Positions 32,012 through 40,080 of a DNA stretch of 64,000 nucleotides are shown here, one piece after another (the first letter of the stretch is position 1; every line of letters starts with the position of its first letter). Below the pieces are notes generated by a model, which worked only from the letters and a program-made list of their open reading frames with translations, was not told where the DNA came from and ran no database searches. Position numbers and translations under genes: made by a program. Origin of the DNA: an uncultured delta proteobacterium (lineage in GTDB: Bacteria; Desulfobacterota; Binatia; Binatales; Binataceae); NCBI GenBank assembly GCA_963794325.1, contig CAWCDG010000009.1, positions 64,001 through 128,000 of the forward strand, written 5' to 3'.

Positions 32012-33322
32012 ATGCCAACAGGAGATTGTGTCTCGGTCCGCCACGTGCCCGCTGCGATGGTCGCGATCGCACTCGCGATTGCACTCGCGGTCCCGGCAGG
32101 CGCCGCAGTAAAACCGGGCGACGTCATCACCGCTCAAACCGCGTACAAGGTGAAAGACCTTGTCTCGCCCGGCGTTTACTACAAAGTCACGAACGGCATG
32201 ACGATGGACATCGTGCCGACCTCAACCATCCAGTGGCCACCGCCGTTTCGCGACGCCACTGAAAAGTATGCCGACCAGGTGCGGCTCTCGCCCGACGGCC
32301 GGTCGCTGGTGAACTATGTCGCTGGGCAACCGTTTCCGTTTCTTGATCCCAATGACCCGAGCGTTGCGACCAAGATCATGTGGAACGCGGCGTTCAGACC
32401 TATCACGTCCGACGACTATGACCTGCGATACTACGATTGCGACGACGTGTACGAAGGACTCAACAAGCCGTACAACGTGATCGACTACTTTCAGATTGGA
32501 CACTACGCCGGTTACGACGAAGTCGGGCGGACCGAAGTCGATCCAATCCCGATCGATCCTGACTTTAAGGCGACGGGGCGCTATTGGATGTTCGCTCTTT
32601 ACCCGATTCTCACGCCCGAAAATCTTCGCGGGTCTGGTTTCATTCGCTACCGCTACGCAAACCCAACCAAGGCTGACGACATCTGGCAGTGGACTCCAGG
32701 AACGCGGCGGCTGCGGCGCCTGAACGAAGGCATCATGAGCGACGCAGTTGTGGGTGGAGGCAATCCCACTTCGTTCGACCCCGATCACTACTCCGGATTC
32801 AACGCCAAGGTCGAGGAATACAACTACAAGCTCCTTGGCCAGAAGACGATGCTTGCGTCGGTGAACGCCAAGCATTCGCCGGAAATCACCTGCTCAACCG
32901 ACGGCGGCGCCAGCGCGTGTCCCGAGAATTGGGAGATGCGCCAACTGTACATTGTCCAGACCTCGCCGCGCGTCTCGGTCAACAGCCAGGCGCTGCACTC
33001 GAAGTCGATTCTCTACATCGACGGCGAGATGTGGTTCGAACCTTACGTGGATGAATACGATCCCAACGGTCAGCTCTGGCAGAATCACATCTACTGGCTG
33101 ACCTATCGCGACCGACCGGTGCCTGATGCGCGCATAGCGATCTATCCCTTCAAGCGCGAATTTGTGGTGGGCGCCGCCGCGACCGACGTTCAGTCTGGAA
33201 TGACCACGATGTGCTACCTGCCCGGGCAAAGCACGCCCGAGCACGAATGCTGGTACATCAACATGGGCGGAGTCGACCGCGATTTCTTCACGACCAACGC
33301 GATGGTCCGAGCCGCGCCGTGA
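32012..33322 (+). CDS. DUF1329 family periplasmic protein (paralog of 6818-8110)
   Basis: Shares YRDRPVPDARIAIYPFKREFVVG and MCYLPGQxTPEHECWYIN; RBS AAGGAGG. Confidence 0.85.
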   Translation: MPTGDCVSVRHVPAAMVAIALAIALAVPAGAAVKPGDVITAQTAYKVKDLVSPGVYYKVTNGMTMDIVPTSTIQWPPPFRDATEKYADQVRLSPDGRSLVNYVAGQPFPFLDPNDPSVATKIMWNAAFRPITSDDYDLRYYDCDDVYEGLNKPYNVIDYFQIGHYAGYDEVGRTEVDPIPIDPDFKATGRYWMFALYPILTPENLRGSGFIRYRYANPTKADDIWQWTPGTRRLRRLNEGIMSDAVVGGGNPTSFDPDHYSGFNAKVEEYNYKLLGQKTMLASVNAKHSPEITCSTDGGASACPENWEMRQLYIVQTSPRVSVNSQALHSKSILYIDGEMWFEPYVDEYDPNGQLWQNHIYWLTYRDRPVPDARIAIYPFKREFVVGAAATDVQSGMTTMCYLPGQSTPEHECWYINMGGVDRDFFTTNAMVRAAP

Positions 33323-33421
33323 TCAATGACGCGGGACCTTGTTCCTGAACTGCTCCCGGTGAGCGAACCCGATGTCACTACTGCGACAGGGGTGGAAATC
33401 ATCAGAAGCGAAAGGTGCTTA

Positions 33422-33496
33422 AGGGACTCGAAATCCTCTGGAGCGAAAGCTCCGTGCGGGTTCGAGTCCCGCCCCGGCACCATTATTTTGGCGTGG
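33422..33496 (+). mobile_element. Second att-like degenerate tRNA-Leu 3' fragment
   Basis: 35 bp (33431-33465) identical to 20119-20153; ends GGCACCA then the same TATTTTGGCGTGG flank. Confidence 0.75.
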
Positions 33497-33616
33497 TGAG
33501 GCCTATCTGGTGAACGCGGACGATTGACCGCCATCGACGACTAGCAATCGCTCCTACTTGGAAAACTCAGAGCGGATTGCCTTCACCGCTGGCGTCAGGC
33601 TAAGAATGTAGTCGTC

Positions 33617-33949
33617 TTGCGCCTTCTCGCCATAATCCTTGCTGTCCTGCTTCTTCCGTTCAGCATGAACGTGCCGTCAGCGATGGCGTGTCCGACAGCG
33701 GCGTGCTGCGGCCCCGATTGTTCGAGCAGCGCTCCGATCAATCAGTTGAGCTGCTGCAAAACGCCGGTTGCGCCGGATCGAGCGACGATTCAAGCGCGAG
33801 ATACGCAACATTTCGATTCGATCGGGAGTATGCCCGTAGCGGCGGTGATCGTCGCGACTTCGCACTCGCGGAGCATCGTCGTCGCTCGAGGGTATTCGCC
33901 ACCCGACCGTCTCCTTTCGTTGGCACTTCTCTGTTCCCGACAAATCTGA
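33617..33949 (+). CDS. Cys-rich putative leader protein upstream of the Cus-like operon
   Basis: Signal peptide, CPTAACCGPDC...SCCK, C-terminal YSPP...LALLCSRQI. Confidence 0.7.
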   Translation: MRLLAIILAVLLLPFSMNVPSAMACPTAACCGPDCSSSAPINQLSCCKTPVAPDRATIQARDTQHFDSIGSMPVAAVIVATSHSRSIVVARGYSPPDRLLSLALLCSRQI

Positions 33950-34134
33950 ACCTTCCATAAGCGCGTGAGTTGAATGGCGAATGTGCCTCATTCGCCGCCG
34001 ACGCTTGCGTGCCGCCTGCTCGCGACAATCCGATGAACATCTGCCGATACGATTCGGCAGGTTAAAGCGCAGGTTCTGGACCTGCGAAGGACTCAGCCGC
34101 GCCGCGATCGATCGCGGCTGGAAGGTTGGAATTT

Positions 34135-35451
34135 GTGAAGTGCCAAAGCATTCGCCGCACAACGGCGCGAAAGTTGATAGCGACCATATTCGCCATCGCA
34201 ATTCTGACGGCGATTCCATCGGCGGGACGCGCACAGGATGGCGCTTCGGCGACTGAAACACCCTCCGGCTCGGATCGACTGCGAGCGCTTGTCGATGAGG
34301 CTCTCGCTCGCAGCCCGGTAGTACTCGCGGCGCGCAGCCACTGGCAGGCTCAAACGAAGGTGCCGATCCAGGCCGCCACGCTGCCTGATCCGGAGGTCTC
34401 GCTCCAGCATTTCACCGTTGGAAGTCCGCAGCCATTCTCAGGCTATGAGAGCAGCGACTTCTACTACACCGGCTTCGGCGTCTCGCAGGACATTCCGGGG
34501 CCCGGCAAGCTCCGCCTGCAAAGGTCTGAGGCCGAGAGAGATGCCGAGTACTCCAAGCATCGCTACGAAGCCGCCGGTCGCGCCGTCGAAGAAAAGGTCA
34601 AGGAGCTCTACTACGAGCTGTTCTATCACGCTAAGACGCTGGCGATCCTTGATCGCAATCAGGACGAGCTGCAGCAGATTCAGAAAATCGCCGAAACCCG
34701 CTACCGCCTCGGACAAAGCCAGCAGCAGGATCTGATCAAAGCGCAGCTTCAGACCACCGAGCTCCTCAAGGAGCACGCAATGCACCATCAGGAGGAGGAT
34801 CAAGAACAGCTCGCGCTCAAGCAGGTGCTCGGGAGGGATCCCGACTCGCGCAATATCGACATCGGTGACGTCGAAATGACGCAGCTCCAGCTCGACGCAT
34901 CGCAGATCGCGCAGTTGGCCGACAGCGGTTCTCCCGACCTCGCCGCGGATCGCGCGATGGAAGCGCGTAGCGCCGAAGCGTTGAAGCTTGCGCATCAGGG
35001 ATACTGGCCGGACTTCACGGTCGGTTACTCGTATCAAAAAACCGGGCCCGGTTTCAGCGACTATTACATGTTGAGTCTCGGCGCGAAGGTTCCGCTTTAT
35101 TTCTGGCGCAAACAGACGCCCGCCATCGAGCAGGCCGCGCTTGAGGCCGAATCAGCGCGCGCGCAAGTCCGTGCAACTCAGCTGCAGGTCTCCTCAGATG
35201 GAGAAAGCAGCATGGTCGCGATGCGCACCGCGGAACGGATCCTGGCTATCTATCGCGACGGTCTGATCCCGCAGGCCGAAACGTCGCAAGCCTCGGCGAT
35301 GGCGGCGTATCGAGTCGGCAAAGTCGATTTCCAGACGCTGCTCTCGTCGGTGCTCGATCTGCAGAACCTGCGGCAGGAGTACTACCGCAGCCTCGCCGAC
35401 CACGAGATCGCTATCGCCAAACTCCAGCAGGTAATCGGTGACCGACGATGA
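34135..35451 (+). CDS. cusC: TolC/CusC-like outer membrane efflux protein
   Basis: LPDPEV, VSQDIPGPGKL, YRVGKVDF; GTG 34135 with SD GGAAGG (TTG 34126 is an alternative start). Confidence 0.85.
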   Translation: MKCQSIRRTTARKLIATIFAIAILTAIPSAGRAQDGASATETPSGSDRLRALVDEALARSPVVLAARSHWQAQTKVPIQAATLPDPEVSLQHFTVGSPQPFSGYESSDFYYTGFGVSQDIPGPGKLRLQRSEAERDAEYSKHRYEAAGRAVEEKVKELYYELFYHAKTLAILDRNQDELQQIQKIAETRYRLGQSQQQDLIKAQLQTTELLKEHAMHHQEEDQEQLALKQVLGRDPDSRNIDIGDVEMTQLQLDASQIAQLADSGSPDLAADRAMEARSAEALKLAHQGYWPDFTVGYSYQKTGPGFSDYYMLSLGAKVPLYFWRKQTPAIEQAALEAESARAQVRATQLQVSSDGESSMVAMRTAERILAIYRDGLIPQAETSQASAMAAYRVGKVDFQTLLSSVLDLQNLRQEYYRSLADHEIAIAKLQQVIGDRR

Positions 35452-36923
35452 ACTACAACTCACTAAGTTGGCGAGTCTGCATGCTGGCTCTCTTTATGGC
35501 CATCGCGGCCCCAAGCGCACACGGAGCGGATTCCCAGCTCGCGCCCATCCGCATCACGCCAGAGCGCAGGCAACTGATCGGCCTGAAGTTCGCGACCGTG
35601 GCGCGAAGGGACGTGAGCGACCGCCTCGAAACCACCGGCAACATCGAGGCCGACGAACGGCTGCAAGGTTACGTGCAAACGCGTTTCGCCGGATGGATCG
35701 AAAAAGTGTTCGCGAATTCGAGCTACCAGTACGTCCGCCGTGGTCAGCCGTTGTTTACGATTTACAGCCCGGACTTGGTGAGCACCGAGAACGAATATCT
35801 GCTCGCTCTCGAGGCTCGCAAGCGCGTGAAGGATAGCAGTGTCGCCGACGTGACCAACGACGCGTCATCGCTGGTCGATTCCGCCGCGGAACGTCTCAAG
35901 CTGTGGGGAGTGTCGCCGCGCGAGGTCGCGCGCCTGGAACGCGAACGCACTGTGCGGCGCGCCGTCGAGATCGACTCTCCCATGAGCGGATACATCGTCG
36001 AGCGCAACGCGCTGCCCAACCTGTATGTGCAACCCGACACGCGCCTGTTCACGATCACCGATCTGTCGAAGGTCTGGATCTACGCGGCGGTGTTTCAGAA
36101 CGAGATCGGAAAAGTCCATCCCGGCGATCCTGCAACCGTTACGGTGGACGCCTATCCGGGCACGAACTTCGACGGGCGCGTCGATTTCATCGAGCCGCAG
36201 ATCGATCCCATGACGCGCACCGCAAAAGTTCGATGCGAGTTCAACAACCCCAAAGGCCAGCTCCTTCCCGGGATGTTCGCGCATGTCGCGCTTGACCTTC
36301 CGATGGGCGAGCAGACCGTGATCCCTGACACGGCGGTTCTGCGCACCGGCACACACAACGTCGCGTTCATCGATCGCGGTGACGGTTATCTCACGCCCGC
36401 CGAGATCGAGTTGGGTGCGCACGTCGGCGACGAATTCATTGTGCTCAAGGGACTCGCGCCGGGTCAGCAGATAGTCAGCTCCGCCAACTTCCTGATCGAT
36501 TCGGAAAGCCAGCTCCAGGCAGCCGCCGGAGCGTTTGTGCCGCCTCCACCGGGCGTCGGCGCGAATGCTCCTGGAGCAGCCACTGAGGCAATCCCCCAGG
36601 CAAGCATCGAGTTCACCAGCGACCCGAACCCGTTGGTGCGAGGTCACAACAAGGCGATCGTGACGGTGCGCGATTCCAAAGGCGCGCCAATCTCAGGCGC
36701 GCAAGTGACGGTGTCCTTCTACATGGCGGCGATGCCCGCGATGGGAATGGCGGCGATGCGCGCGCAAGGCACCGCGGAAGATCAAGGGAATGGAACCTAC
36801 TCGGCGAATATCGATCTACCGAGCGGTGGCACCTGGAGCCTGACGATCACCGCGTCCAAGGGTGGTCAACCTATCGCGACCAAGCAAATGGACGTGTCGG
36901 CCAGCGGCTCCATGGCGATGTGA
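35448..36923 (+). CDS. cusB: CusB-like RND adaptor with C-terminal Met-rich YtkA/FixH-like domain
   Basis: GWIEK, IYSPDL, DPMTRT, LLPGMF, SANFLIDSES; tail MAAMPAMGMAAM...GTWSL. Confidence 0.88.
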   Translation: MNYNSLSWRVCMLALFMAIAAPSAHGADSQLAPIRITPERRQLIGLKFATVARRDVSDRLETTGNIEADERLQGYVQTRFAGWIEKVFANSSYQYVRRGQPLFTIYSPDLVSTENEYLLALEARKRVKDSSVADVTNDASSLVDSAAERLKLWGVSPREVARLERERTVRRAVEIDSPMSGYIVERNALPNLYVQPDTRLFTITDLSKVWIYAAVFQNEIGKVHPGDPATVTVDAYPGTNFDGRVDFIEPQIDPMTRTAKVRCEFNNPKGQLLPGMFAHVALDLPMGEQTVIPDTAVLRTGTHNVAFIDRGDGYLTPAEIELGAHVGDEFIVLKGLAPGQQIVSSANFLIDSESQLQAAAGAFVPPPPGVGANAPGAATEAIPQASIEFTSDPNPLVRGHNKAIVTVRDSKGAPISGAQVTVSFYMAAMPAMGMAAMRAQGTAEDQGNGTYSANIDLPSGGTWSLTITASKGGQPIATKQMDVSASGSMAM

Positions 36924-36933
36924 GGACCGAAGC

Positions 36934-39900
36934 ATGATCGAAAGAACTATCGACTGGTGTAATGAGAACCGCTTCATCCTGTTCTTCGGCGTGCTCGCGC
37001 TGATACTCGCGGGCATCTGGTCGCTCGATCGAATCCCGCTCGATGCGCTACCGGACATCTCCGACGTTCAGGTGATTATCCACACCGAATGGATGGGTCA
37101 GCCGCCCAACCTCATCGAAGATCAGGTGACCTATCCTATTGTCACCGCGATGCTTGCCGCGCCGCACGTAAAGGCGGTCCGCGCGCAGACCATGCCCAAC
37201 GACTCTTATGTATTCGTCGTCTTTGAAGACGGCACTGACATCTATTGGGCGCGCAGCCGCGTGCTGGAATACCTGCAGCAGATCACGGGCAAGCTTCCGA
37301 CGGGCGTAAATCCTGCAATAGGTCCCGATGCGACCGGCGCGGGCTGGGTCTACGAGTATGCTCTCGTCGATAAGAGTCATACTCACAATCTCGCCGATCT
37401 CCGCAGCCTGCAGGATTGGAACGTGCGCTATGCGCTCGAAACGGTGCCGGGGGTTTCGGAGGTCGCCACTATCGGCGGCTTCGTAAAGCAGTACCAGGTC
37501 AAGCTCGATCCAAATCGGTTGCTCGCGCTCAAGGTCCCGTTGGAAACGGTGATCGACAAAATCCGCGACAGCAATGGCGAAGTCGGTGGGCGCGTGCTCG
37601 AGATGTCGGGAGCGGACTACATGATCCGCGGCCTCGGCTACGTCCATTCGGTCACAGACCTTGAGCAGATCTCCGTCGCAACCAACAATGGCACGCCGGT
37701 GCTGATAAGAGATTTGGGCGTCGTAAGTCTCGGACCCGACTTGCGCGAGGGCGCCGCAGAATGGAACGGCGACGGCGAAACCGTCGGCGGCATCGTAGTA
37801 ATGCGCTACGGACAGAATGCGCTCACCGTCATCGACGGGGTCAAGCAGAAGCTCGCTCAGATTCAAAAGACCCTGCCGCGCGGCGTTGAAATCGTAGCCG
37901 GTTACGATCGTTCGGGACTCATCCAGGCATCGATCAACACTTTGAAGCGCGATCTGCTCGAAGAGGCCATCATCGTAAGCCTCGTGATCATCATTTTCCT
38001 CTTCCACCTGCGCTCCGCGCTGATCCCGATTCTTGCGCTGCCGATCGCGGTCATCGCGACCTTCATTCCGATGTACTATCTGCAGATCAGCTCCAACATC
38101 ATGTCGCTCGGCGGGTTGGCGCTGGCGATAGGTGTGCTGGTCGATGCTTCGATCGTGATGGTCGAGAACGGCTATCGACACCTATCGGAAGCGCAGCACC
38201 TCGCGTCGCTAAGAGGCGAATCGGTTTCCCCATCCGAGCGGCAGCGAATTTTGCTATCGGCCGCAAAGCAGGTCGGCCGCCCGATCTTCTTCTCGCTGAT
38301 AATTATTGTCGTCTCATTCCTGCCGGTGTTCCTGCTCGAATCGCAGGAGGGACGGATGTTTCGTCCGCTGGCTTATACCAAGTCCTTTGCGATCGGCTTC
38401 TCTTCAATTCTCGCGATCACCGTGGTTCCGGTGCTGATGGTTCTCTTCATCCGCGGTAAGCGCCTTCGACCGGAGGAGGACAACCCCATCTCGCGCTTCT
38501 TCCAGGCCATCTATCTGCCGGTCATCCGATGGTGCCTGCATCATCGCGCCCTGACGATCGTCGCCAACGTGATATTCGTGCTGCTGACAATTCCGCTGCT
38601 GTTCAAGATAGGCAGTCAGTTCATGCCGCCGCTCTACGAAGGATCGAGTCTCTACATGCCGACTGCCTTGCCCGGTATTTCGATCAGCTCAGCGGTAGAT
38701 CTGATGCAGAAGCAGGATCAGATCATCCGAACGTTTCCCGAGGTCGAAAGCGTGTTCGGCAGTGTAGGACGTTCGGATAGCGCGACCGACAACGCGCCGC
38801 TGGACATGTATGACACGACTATCATGCTCAAGCCTCGCGCCCAGTGGAGAAAGGGCATGACCTACGATTCGCTGATCGCGGAGATGGACGACAGATTACA
38901 TTTTCCCGGTCTGTCTAACTCGTGGACGATGCCAGTCGAGAATCGGCTCGACATGGAGTTGACCGGGATCAAGACCCCGGTAGGACTGAAAATTCAGGGT
39001 CCCGAGGTCGATAGGATTCAGCAGATAGGTTCGCAGATTGAAGAGATACTTGGATCCGTTGCGGGCACGCGAGGAATTTTCGCCGAACGAGTCTCTCAAG
39101 GGTTCTACATCAACGTCGATGTCGATCGCGCGGTCGCCGCGCGGTACGGACTGACGGTCGGAGCCGTTCAGCGCGCAGTCAGCTCTGGCATGGGCGGCGA
39201 GAATATCGCGACCACCGTCGAGGGGCGCGAGCGCTACTCGATAAACGTCCGCTATCTCGCGGATTACCGAAATGACCTGAACGCGCTCCGCCGCATATTG
39301 ATCATGACGCCGACCGGCGCGCAGATTCCGCTCGGCGAGGTCGCGCATATCGACTTGAGCCCGGGCCCCTCGATGATCCGCGACGAAGATGGGCAACTAA
39401 CGGGCTACGTCTATGTTGACCTCGCGACTTCGGACTACGGCAGCTATGTTGACAGCGCGCAGCGCGTGCTGGATCGGCAGCTCCATCTGCCCGCCGGATA
39501 CACTCTGAAATGGTCGGGCGAATATGAGTTCCAGTTGCGCGCGCGAAAGCGCCTGACGGTCATCCTGCCAATCGTATTCGGTCTGATCTTTGTCCTGCTC
39601 TACATGCTCTTCCAATCGGTGACCGAATCGATCGTGCTCATTCTTCCGACCGTGTACGCGATGACCGGCGGGCTTCTGCTTCAGTACATGATGGGCTTCA
39701 ACTTCAGCGTCGCCGTATGGGTCGGCTACATCGCGCTGTTCGGAATCGCGGTCGAGACCGGCGTTGTCATGGTGATCTACCTTCACGAAGCACTGAATCG
39801 TCACATTGCCGCCGGCCAACTAACCCAGGAAGGCGTCGAAGCAGCGGTTATCGAGGGCGCAGTCCAGCGCCTTCGCCCCAAGCTGATGACCGTTGCGGTG

Positions 39901-40080
39901 GTAATGCTCAGTCTCGCGCCGATTTTATGGGAGAGCGGAATCGGTTCGGACGTGATGAAACCAATCGCAGCGCCAATCGTCGGCGGCATGATCACCTCGA
40001 CGATTCACGTACTCATACTCGTGCCTGTGTTCTTCGCGATCATGAAGGAACGCGCACTAAGGAAAGGAACCCTGCTTTGA
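36934..40080 (+). CDS. cusA: CusA/SilA heavy-metal RND transporter
   Basis: LDALPDISDVQVI, GPDATG.GWVYEY, QFMPPL.EG..LYMP, RLRPKLMT. Confidence 0.95.
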   Translation: MIERTIDWCNENRFILFFGVLALILAGIWSLDRIPLDALPDISDVQVIIHTEWMGQPPNLIEDQVTYPIVTAMLAAPHVKAVRAQTMPNDSYVFVVFEDGTDIYWARSRVLEYLQQITGKLPTGVNPAIGPDATGAGWVYEYALVDKSHTHNLADLRSLQDWNVRYALETVPGVSEVATIGGFVKQYQVKLDPNRLLALKVPLETVIDKIRDSNGEVGGRVLEMSGADYMIRGLGYVHSVTDLEQISVATNNGTPVLIRDLGVVSLGPDLREGAAEWNGDGETVGGIVVMRYGQNALTVIDGVKQKLAQIQKTLPRGVEIVAGYDRSGLIQASINTLKRDLLEEAIIVSLVIIIFLFHLRSALIPILALPIAVIATFIPMYYLQISSNIMSLGGLALAIGVLVDASIVMVENGYRHLSEAQHLASLRGESVSPSERQRILLSAAKQVGRPIFFSLIIIVVSFLPVFLLESQEGRMFRPLAYTKSFAIGFSSILAITVVPVLMVLFIRGKRLRPEEDNPISRFFQAIYLPVIRWCLHHRALTIVANVIFVLLTIPLLFKIGSQFMPPLYEGSSLYMPTALPGISISSAVDLMQKQDQIIRTFPEVESVFGSVGRSDSATDNAPLDMYDTTIMLKPRAQWRKGMTYDSLIAEMDDRLHFPGLSNSWTMPVENRLDMELTGIKTPVGLKIQGPEVDRIQQIGSQIEEILGSVAGTRGIFAERVSQGFYINVDVDRAVAARYGLTVGAVQRAVSSGMGGENIATTVEGRERYSINVRYLADYRNDLNALRRILIMTPTGAQIPLGEVAHIDLSPGPSMIRDEDGQLTGYVYVDLATSDYGSYVDSAQRVLDRQLHLPAGYTLKWSGEYEFQLRARKRLTVILPIVFGLIFVLLYMLFQSVTESIVLILPTVYAMTGGLLLQYMMGFNFSVAVWVGYIALFGIAVETGVVMVIYLHEALNRHIAAGQLTQEGVEAAVIEGAVQRLRPKLMTVAVVMLSLAPILWESGIGSDVMKPIAAPIVGGMITSTIHVLILVPVFFAIMKERALRKGTLL

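Follow-up and report, generated by a model that had tools for sequence, protein, structure and literature searches.

We analysed a stretch of 64,000 nucleotides (nt) from an uncultured member of the Binataceae (phylum Binatota; assembly GCA_963794325.1, contig CAWCDG010000009.1, positions 64,001 to 128,000 of the forward strand), hereafter the window, in which a gene for a small cysteine-rich protein precedes a Cus-like operon encoding a tripartite efflux pump of the resistance-nodulation-division (RND) type. The leader gene (33617..33949, +; 110 amino acids (aa), TTG start, TGA stop) is separated by a structured spacer of 185 nt (33950..34134, +) from the gene for the outer-membrane factor (OMF), and the end of the leader gene can pair with the Shine-Dalgarno (SD) sequence of the OMF gene. 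This helix is in all likelihood a real, selected feature that couples translation of the leader to initiation on the OMF gene, and we lean, by a narrow measure, towards a complete switch, in which the small protein would act as a sensory leader of the CutF/SilD kind ahead of an RND efflux operon of the Cus (Cu/Ag) type.

The 5' arm of the helix (33940..33957, +), recovered in both the minimum free energy (MFE) fold and the consensus fold, comprises the last codons of the leader, the stop codon and the anti-SD ACCUUCC, and its 3' arm (34119..34136, +), from the MFE fold, comprises the SD GGAAGG (34120-34125), the gap to the start codon and the first two bases of GTG 34135, the OMF start. As a sequence-only reading of this DNA had claimed, ACAAATCTGAACCTTCCA (33940-33957) and TGGAAGGTTGGAATTTGT (34119-34136) pair at 16 of 18 positions, one of them G-U, the mismatches being C33946/A34130 and G33948/G34128. 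When the end of the leader and the start of the OMF gene were folded together (33930-34145), the helix closed the MFE structure, which at -92.3 kcal/mol is more stable than any of 200 shuffled sequences (-73.1 +/- 4.6 kcal/mol; z = -4.15), and the four hairpins that the same reading had named in the spacer are all found in it (33975-33983/33989-33997, 34039-34047/34054-34062, 34068-34075/34079-34086 and 34101-34107/34112-34118), together with an enclosing stem (33961-33970/34003-34012), making five inner stems. The duplex between the stop-region window and the SD window (-28.0 kcal/mol) is also stronger than the best of 1046 other windows in the 3.3-kb locus (-24.3 kcal/mol). The closing helix can be lengthened by an optional outer extension of ten base pairs (bp), in which TTGGCACTTC (33920..33929, +) pairs perfectly with GAAGTGCCAA (34137-34146) and thereby joins the leader codons for L-A-L-L to OMF codons 1-4; it occurs in identical form in two of 73 loci (the window and L049), and a related 8-bp extension is present in 19 loci, with partner bases A-U in 11, G-U in 4, G-C in 3, another combination in 1 and A-C in none.

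The related loci stem from metagenome-assembled genomes of Ca. Binatus and other Binataceae from soils and peat. Across 33 of them RNAalifold keeps the helix, in the form UCU-G-AACC (Ile codon, UGA and the next three bases) paired with GGUUGGA, as well as the enclosing stem and the first and last hairpins. Over the 16 helix pairs, the share of paired cells is 91.4% in 33 loci and 91.9% in 73 loci; shifting the 3' partners by one to three columns lowers it to 24-61.5%. Among the 73 loci, in which the column equivalent to the OMF start holds GTG, ATG or TTG, five pairs have changed on both sides (16 cells, compared with 7.5 +/- 2.2 cells in shuffles), and none of 500 shuffles reached the observed percentage paired, number of double-change cells or covariation score. 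Individual loci illustrate such changes: in L022 the SD has moved by one to two bases and the arm is altered to match (A-U to C-G, C-G to U-A), in L029 and L041 an A-U pair of the helix has become G-C, and of the two loci with an AUU Ile codon one carries a compensating G-to-A. We regard the covariation evidence for the helix as positive but modest, given the near-invariance of most positions and the kinship of the loci. By the same measures the inner stems covary more clearly than the closing helix (48 pairs, 88.7% of cells paired; 13 double-changed pairs versus 5.3 +/- 1.7 in shuffles, with 0/500 shuffles as high), two of them being missing in spacer variants of 141-145 nt.

Diverged loci have another spacer and in some cases another downstream gene, yet the stop region still pairs with the next SD or start codon. 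The helix takes the form GAUCGCCAUUC with GAAUGGUGAU in L012, UGAUCCUUCC with GAGGA...AGGAUCA in L036 and L103, and CCUCCGC and CCUCCA with GCGGAGG and UGGAGG in L044 and L045, respectively; in L114 and L117 the stop region pairs with the start-codon region, and in the sequence-divergent L041 it likewise remains paired with the SD and start. Because folding a segment that ends in both arms biases the result, 90 unique loci were also folded from 60 nt before to 300 nt past the stop codon, and we scored what the stop window (-8..+9) paired with: the SD plus start of the next long open reading frame (ORF) in 49 loci, the start only in 5, an SD-like sequence only in 4, another region in 10 and none in 22. 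For a control window 30 nt upstream (-40..-23) the corresponding numbers were 1, 9, 1, 33 and 46, so that the SD or start of the next long ORF was the partner in 54/90 loci for the stop window versus 10/90 for the control. In folds with flanks of 90 nt and 60 nt, the median number of expected base pairs between arm and SD was 9.8, versus 0.8 after shuffling of the arm, and at least six were expected between the two windows in 23/36 loci. Together, these comparisons support a helix between stop region and SD that is conserved and, in diverged loci, rebuilt with other sequences.

The leader itself, judged from its conservation, is a real gene of a narrow family of Ca. Binatus and Binataceae. Its translation starts with LRLLAIILAVLLLPFSMNVPSAMA, continues with CPTAACCGPDC...SCCK and ends with the tail YSPPDRLLSLALLCSRQI before the stop codon, so that the ORF, the cysteine cluster and the tail described in the sequence-only reading are all present, the signal peptide being recognised by eye from the translation and alignments (residues 1-24, 33617..33688, +; a basic residue, a hydrophobic run and ...PSAMA before C25). 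Of 24 other genomes of the genus, 11 contain a relative (42-83% identity, no internal stops); 70 relatives came from a set of 5.8 billion proteins, and 29 representative clusters from HMMER across 1.84 billion proteins (E <= 0.001). An even sample of the phylum yielded the leader in 3/401 genomes including that of the window, all three of one genus. The start codon is GTG in most loci, TTG in the window and ATG in L003. The family alignment falls into four parts, namely the signal-peptide-like N-terminus, an invariant CC-x3-C ... CC, a drifting middle and a C-terminal block, which supports the view that the leader encodes a conserved, putatively exported, cysteine-rich protein. Its candidate metal site comprises, from the alignment, C25, C30, C31, C35, C46 and C47 (33689..33757, +), of which C30, C31, C35 and C46 occur without exception in 14 members of 26-70% identity, and C47 in at least 90% of them. 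Neither Pfam nor NCBIfam has a matching family, and a PDB sequence search with the family profile gave 0 matches at E up to 10. For PF11162 (DUF2946), the window protein gave no match at E up to 0.01, nor did any of nine family members at E up to 10, and there were 0 matches in the window's genome (85% complete). No match was obtained by tblastn against 72,556 plasmids. In the literature text, the supplementary lists of PMC9973294 not included, the motif CSRQI is nowhere to be found, and the papers listed for arrest peptides, efflux, upstream ORFs and SD in combination include nothing on the leader family.

The last 18-19 residues (Y-SPP-x-R-xx-SLALLCSRQI) are, from the alignments, the most constrained part of the leader. 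In the window this candidate arrest sequence, singled out by its conservation, reads G92-Y-S-P-P-D-R-L-L-S-L-A-L-L-C-S-R-Q-I110 followed by TGA (33890..33949, +), and in the family G-Y-S-P-P-x-R-x-x-S-L-A-L-L-C-S-R-Q-I. CSRQI plus TGA is identical in 37/37 unique loci, and TGA is the stop codon in all 72 further loci. Across the same 37 loci the codons vary: Ser is written with four codons, Arg with four, Gln as CAA in 18 and CAG in 19, Ile as ATC in 35 and ATT in 2, and Leu at -9 with six. Since the residues are fixed while their codons vary, selection must act on the peptide and not merely on the RNA. The distant members found by the hidden Markov model (P0084-P0091, 26-43% identity) keep the signal peptide and CC-x3-C...CC, and have SPP, PPP or TPPP followed by ...L[AST][LI]LCSRQI, with P0084 (...RLCSLQI) as the sole exception. 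The sequence-only reading had called the C-terminal motif different from the RAPP-like motifs of known leaders. This holds only in part: the proline motif typical of CutF-like proteins is present (SPP here, PPP or TPPP in distant members), and an invariant hydrophobic-cysteine tail behind the prolines occurs in the SilD family too. In the window P95-P96 is followed by 14 residues, only the second proline thus falling within the last 15, and the same distance after the last PP is found in 135 of the 154 members with PP (162 scored).

Two distances appear to fit a ribosome positioned at the leader's end. Counted from the last base of UGA, the paired block of the 54 helix-bearing loci extends from about -5 to +8, with a sharp drop at +9, and in the window the 5' arm ends 8 nt past the stop codon. 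A ribosome covers about 9 nt past its A-site codon; with UGA in the A site it would therefore keep the whole arm single-stranded. By analogy with known stalling leaders, the pause may take place at the stop codon or at the last sense codons; the invariance of UGA could equally be due to its pairing within the helix. A stall on the PP motif in the manner of CutF was set aside as the sole mechanism, the prolines lying 45-48 nt before the arm. The second distance, from the last CC to the C-terminus, is 60-67 residues in 158/162 unique members (mode 63), the residues between being poorly conserved. This would be roughly the combined length of the exit tunnel and the translocon, so that the cysteine site would just have cleared the membrane as the ribosome arrives at the ORF's end.

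On the reading that we favour, the helix would hide the ribosome-binding site in free mRNA, and the pump genes would be poorly translated. A ribosome lingering at the end of the leader, either with UGA in the A site or on the last sense codons, would cover the 5' arm and thereby free the SD. How long it lingers might be set by the nascent chain, with the conserved tail and the PP motif in the exit tunnel serving as arrest sequence, while the cysteine cluster, 63 residues behind the peptidyl-transferase centre, would just reach the periplasm via SecYEG. Binding of Cu(I) or Ag(I) to the cluster might then alter the pull on the chain and hence the pause, by analogy with CutF/CutO, so that pump synthesis would be tied to periplasmic metal. 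The genes for the membrane-fusion protein (MFP) and the RND pump would follow by ordinary coupling, given the 4-nt overlap of the OMF and MFP genes and the MFP stop codon 10 nt before the likely RND start.

A similar arrangement is found in SilD. SilD and CusD of Cupriavidus metallidurans are the first genes of silDCBA and cusDCBAF, with function unknown according to PMC7563307, and a network figure legend (Fig. 6 of PMC9973294) names them CutF-like. SilD of pMOL30 (L119:224-619, -) ends with ...RPPPRPLAILHCCFRI, and its relatives share an invariant hydrophobic-cysteine tail, PPPLAILHCCFR[IT], before the stop codon. The distance from CxxHC to the C-terminus is 59-63 residues in 61/61 scored members (62 collected). 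In three SilD loci, L119 (spacer 72 nt), L120 (134 nt) and L121 (72 nt), the TolC-like gene has its SD or start paired with the preceding stop region; in L121, CCUCCG directly past the stop pairs with CGGAGG (P 0.89-1.0). Profile comparison by hhalign of the leader family with SilD gave a probability of 2.4%, and with a 20-member SilD alignment 11.7%, in which only 15 signal-peptide columns were aligned; one of 20 SilD relatives matched DUF2946, as did 2/80 among precomputed matches. In its anatomy, as far as sequence comparison tells, the window locus is of the SilD class, without detectable homology.

Several points weigh against a metal-sensing switch, or at least against the strength of the evidence for it. 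The related loci were retrieved with the tail as the search pattern, and the tail is therefore conserved by construction in that set; unbiased support for it comes from the relatives in 11/24 other genomes of the genus and from the 29 HMMER clusters, distant members included. The helix was derived from one of the aligned sequences, and the counts against shuffles overstate its support because the loci are kin. The sequence-only reading is upheld in that the helix recurs in homologs, whereas the conservative measures of covariation are not outstanding, since the observed number of double-change pairs was matched by 40/500 shuffles and that of pair types by 23/500. The duplexes of the diverged loci rank only moderately within their own loci (L041 11/1046, L036 13/1029, L012 38/1038, L044 117/1017, L045 125/1021). 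The helix was not dominant in 36/90 loci in the neutral-end folds, and in the flanked folds 13/36 loci preferred a different pairing, which in several cases involved leader codons about 45 nt upstream. The codons of the two prolines lie 45-48 nt before the stop codon; a ribosome stalled there would miss the arm, and the pause site must therefore be elsewhere, at a position that is guessed. In a few loci the leader stands without an intact downstream partner (L043, L059, L110, L112). The fold of the SilD locus L119 is not unusually stable (z = -1.53), and, as there is neither a DUF2946 match nor a profile link to SilD, the analogy to CutF and SilD is one of architecture only.

The explanation next in likelihood to the metal-responsive switch is a plain, unregulated coupling, in which the helix ties OMF translation to any ribosome that passes the end of the leader and so fixes the ratio of the products, with no arrest and no metal sensing, the small protein having a periplasmic task of its own. 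All the support for the helix fits this explanation equally well, since any terminating ribosome would open the arm. We nevertheless think it unlikely, as it leaves unexplained why, at the level of the peptide, conservation of the protein peaks in the last ten residues, why the distance from the cysteine site to the C-terminus is kept at 60-67 residues while the sequence between drifts, and why the equivalent three features recur in the unrelated-looking SilD family.

It is also conceivable that the small protein acts chiefly in trans, as a periplasmic metal-binder (a chaperone or sensor replacing CusF, or an accessory like CzcI), its tail being a docking or sorting motif and the RNA helix secondary. 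This would account for the invariant cysteine cluster and the signal peptide, and it agrees with the lack of a CusF-like gene among the operon ORFs scanned and with the loci that carry other exported proteins instead of the OMF behind the leader. We give it a still smaller chance, because no fold or family was recognised in searches of Pfam, NCBIfam and PDB sequences, conservation is poor in the middle of the protein and the tail ends exactly at the RNA arm, and because CutF, the studied analogue, acts in cis only and is undetectable in cells according to the text of PMC9973294.

Improbable to a further degree is control of transcription, in which the paused ribosome would shield the 185-nt untranslated spacer from Rho or RNases and its release would end transcription before the pump genes. 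CruR, a DUF2946 leader, acts in this way (PMC9426467), and the spacer of the window is long and untranslated and, in the scan of 33200-34300, devoid of an intrinsic terminator. It is, however, tightly structured, and C is not in excess over G (A37, C53, G56, T39), which by the usual criteria makes it a poor Rho-loading site; moreover, the conserved feature is the helix between anti-SD and SD, which points to control of initiation. Finally, an element of RNA only, in which the spacer would be a structure responsive to a ligand, temperature or a small RNA and the conservation of the leader's 3' end a pure RNA constraint, has hardly any prospect despite the covariation of the inner stems and the unusual stability of the fold, since synonymous sites of the tail vary freely under fixed residues, two inner stems are absent from the 141-145-nt variants, diverged loci have retained the tail and the closing helix with an entirely different spacer, and an Rfam search of 33000-34500 (E up to 1) gave no match to the spacer. 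The spacer is present in a single copy in the genome, and the idea of a repeated element was rejected.

With the metal-responsive switch as the favoured reading, a more far-reaching proposal can be made, which we put forward tentatively and consider doubtful as it stands. The tail, Y-SPP-x-R-xx-SLALLCSRQI-UGA, might be a new arrest peptide that holds the ribosome at the stop codon or 1-5 codons before it, rather than on the prolines. With the SilD-type tail PPPLAILHCCFRI as its counterpart, it might represent a widespread, unrecognised 'ruler' design, in which a periplasmic cysteine site fixed 60-65 residues from the peptidyl-transferase centre would report Cu/Ag across SecYEG, and a stop-anchored anti-SD arm would span spacers of up to about 190 nt. 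If true, this design would contradict the expectation that such switches need short intergenic regions.

The operon behind the leader is of the Cus type. The OMF gene (34135..35451, +; TolC/CusC-like, PF02321, E = 8.1e-45) overlaps the MFP gene (35448..36923, +; CusB/HlyD_D23 with a C-terminal YtkA-like domain, PF16576) by 4 nt, and is followed by the gene for a CusA-like pump of the heavy-metal-efflux (HME) RND type (36934..40080, +; TIGR00914, 1122.9 bits, cut-off 701). The ORF of the latter is listed from GTG 36862, inside the MFP gene; the in-frame ATG 36934, 10 nt past the MFP stop, is the more likely start because the TIGR00914 match begins at residue 25 of the listed ORF. The RND protein scores 1045.7 bits with E. 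coli CusA versus 537.4 bits with ZneA, which makes 'Cus-like', the label of the sequence-only reading, a fair one, and OMF, MFP and RND are all encoded in one operon, as in tripartite pumps of the Cus type. Neighbours of the operon encode a DUF1329 protein, a methyltransferase and a cyclic-nucleotide (cNMP)-binding protein, and no gene for a metal-responsive regulator lies next to it among the ORFs scanned. A scan of 33200-34300 for promoter-like and terminator-like sites, covering promoters of the sigma-70 type only, returned 0 and 0, and an internal promoter or attenuator within the spacer is thus unsupported. Upstream of the leader, an alignment of 18 loci (window 33570-33616 and 17 others) contains only two short common blocks, GATTGC about 45 nt and (A/G)GGT 8-12 nt before the leader start, and no nameable regulator site. 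The ORFs on the opposite strand (33677-34261 and 33214-33534) matched no family, and the plus frame is favoured over them because of its synonymous pattern.

Further observations concern the surroundings of the leader. About 135 nt upstream, at 33418-33482 (+), lie the 3' two-thirds of a tRNA-Ser(CGA)-like gene with the anticodon arm, a long variable arm, the T arm and the 3' strand of the acceptor plus CCA, without the 5' half. The Rfam tRNA-Sec model scores it at 22.1 bits (gathering score 47), ARAGORN gives no match, and a 92% copy occupies the equivalent place in L003 only. It may be the attachment-site remnant of an island bearing the pump operon. In some loci the place of the OMF gene behind the leader is taken by a gene for an uncharacterised exported protein of about 100 aa (L036:1934-2239, L088:917-1225, L113:642-941, L116:1488-1790, L044:1868-2182, L114:1429-1932), one type of which ends with ...VDPxEIDxALEPxxVW, while a second is duplicated in L114. 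A 193-aa lipoprotein-like protein with a CC...CCCPC cluster follows the leader in L080 (1640-2221) and in L098. Neither the exported proteins nor the lipoprotein-like protein belong to a Pfam family. In L059, L110, L112 and L043, sequence that is unrelated or truncated takes over within the spacer behind the leader, the spacer of L059 continuing directly into the part of an RND gene that encodes the C-terminus; we regard these loci as copies that have been rearranged, have decayed or were mis-assembled.

The locus belongs to a known kind, the sensory leaders of the CutF/CruR type, which have been catalogued mostly upstream of RND outer-membrane genes (PMC9973294). Because the proline motif is present and a hydrophobic-cysteine tail also occurs in SilD, we see in it a variant of this catalogued class, not a new principle. 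What appears to be new, from the comparison of sequences, is a family outside DUF2946 and SilD, found in Binatota and unrecognised by current domain libraries, and a structured spacer of 118-192 nt bridged by a stop-anchored arm; a putative pause site that cannot be the prolines would be new as well. The rules for tail, ruler and arm that the family shares with SilD were not found stated in the literature text, the supplements of PMC9973294 not included. Long spacers may be workable for such a switch if their fold brings stop codon and SD together. Metal efflux pumps are usually regarded as being switched by two-component or MerR-type regulators. CutF and CruR set the precedent that a nascent exported peptide can do the sensing, and the present locus would extend it to an RND pump of the Cus type in an uncultured soil phylum. 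Three design rules emerge that can be checked, namely an invariant tail behind the prolines, a distance of about 60-65 residues from the cysteines to the C-terminus, and an anti-SD arm on the stop codon, and all three also hold for SilD of Cupriavidus, a culturable and non-pathogenic model of metal resistance.

Among other systems in which a leader peptide controls the next gene, TnaC holds the ribosome at a UGA stop codon in the A site, in a short cytoplasmic leader that responds to tryptophan. PepNL, a short cytoplasmic leader likewise responding to tryptophan, also holds the ribosome with a UGA stop codon in the A site (PMC11890864). The invariant UGA of the present family and an RNA arm that fits a ribosome at UGA resemble both, although there is no likeness in sequence, and a stall at the stop codon is merely one possibility here. 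The arrest sequence of SecM is about 17 aa long, and the conserved C-terminal stretch of 18-19 aa is similar in size. SecM is an exported leader as well, and its C-terminal arrest at the end of the ORF melts a structure that hides the SD of secA (bioRxiv 10.1101/2025.02.05.636593); unlike SecM, which monitors secretion activity, the present leader would have metal as its signal, its motif is different and its arrest only a candidate.

The closest parallels are the copper leaders, and the published accounts of CruR and CutF agree with the background on which the sequence-only reading drew. CruR (Bp2923) of Bordetella pertussis contains a RAPP arrest motif relieved by copper, with Rho-dependent termination as its output (PMC9426467). 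Like CruR, the present leader is an upstream ORF with a cysteine motif and a candidate C-terminal arrest motif at the head of a copper-related operon; unlike CruR, it has a conserved anti-SD helix and no RAPP motif. The exported small protein CutF, encoded by the cutFOG operon of Rhodobacter capsulatus, contains a CxxxC motif and ends in P109EPEGPPPRL118, which includes the C-terminal PPP (PMC9973294), and copper-dependent CutO requires the CutF signal peptide, CxxxC, the proline-rich C-terminus and a stem-loop that shields the SD (PMC9973294; bioRxiv 10.1101/2025.02.05.636593). A rule-based search defined 5,334 CutF-like proteins, whose commonest downstream neighbour is the outer-membrane efflux protein (OEP) gene of an RND pump and whose spacers are mostly < 100 nt (PMC9973294). 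The present leader, with 110 aa, lies within the size limit of that rule (< 150 aa), and its downstream neighbour, an OMF gene 185 nt away, accords with the rule on the downstream gene (PMC9973294). It shares with CutF the small size and putative export, a cysteine metal motif, a proline motif near the C-terminus, and a cis arrangement with a downstream gene for metal homeostasis, the SD of which is shielded by RNA structure. It differs in that its family has no Pfam DUF2946 match and its host belongs to the Binatota, in that PP is followed by 14 nearly invariant residues whereas PPP of CutF lies two residues from the end, in the spacer of 185 nt, which is longer than most among CutF-like genes, and in that the anti-SD lies on and just past the stop codon. 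In SilD, spacers are shorter (72 nt in two of three loci) with few inner hairpins, and the stop codon is TAG in 2/3 loci, unlike the invariant UGA here. Like SilD, the present leader heads a Cu/Ag RND operon, immediately ahead of the TolC-like gene; both have a signal peptide (by eye here), a metal motif (Cys here, Cys/His in SilD), prolines and then an invariant hydrophobic-cysteine tail, and in both a similar distance separates the metal motif from the C-terminus (59-63 aa there, 60-67 here) and the stop region is paired with the next SD.

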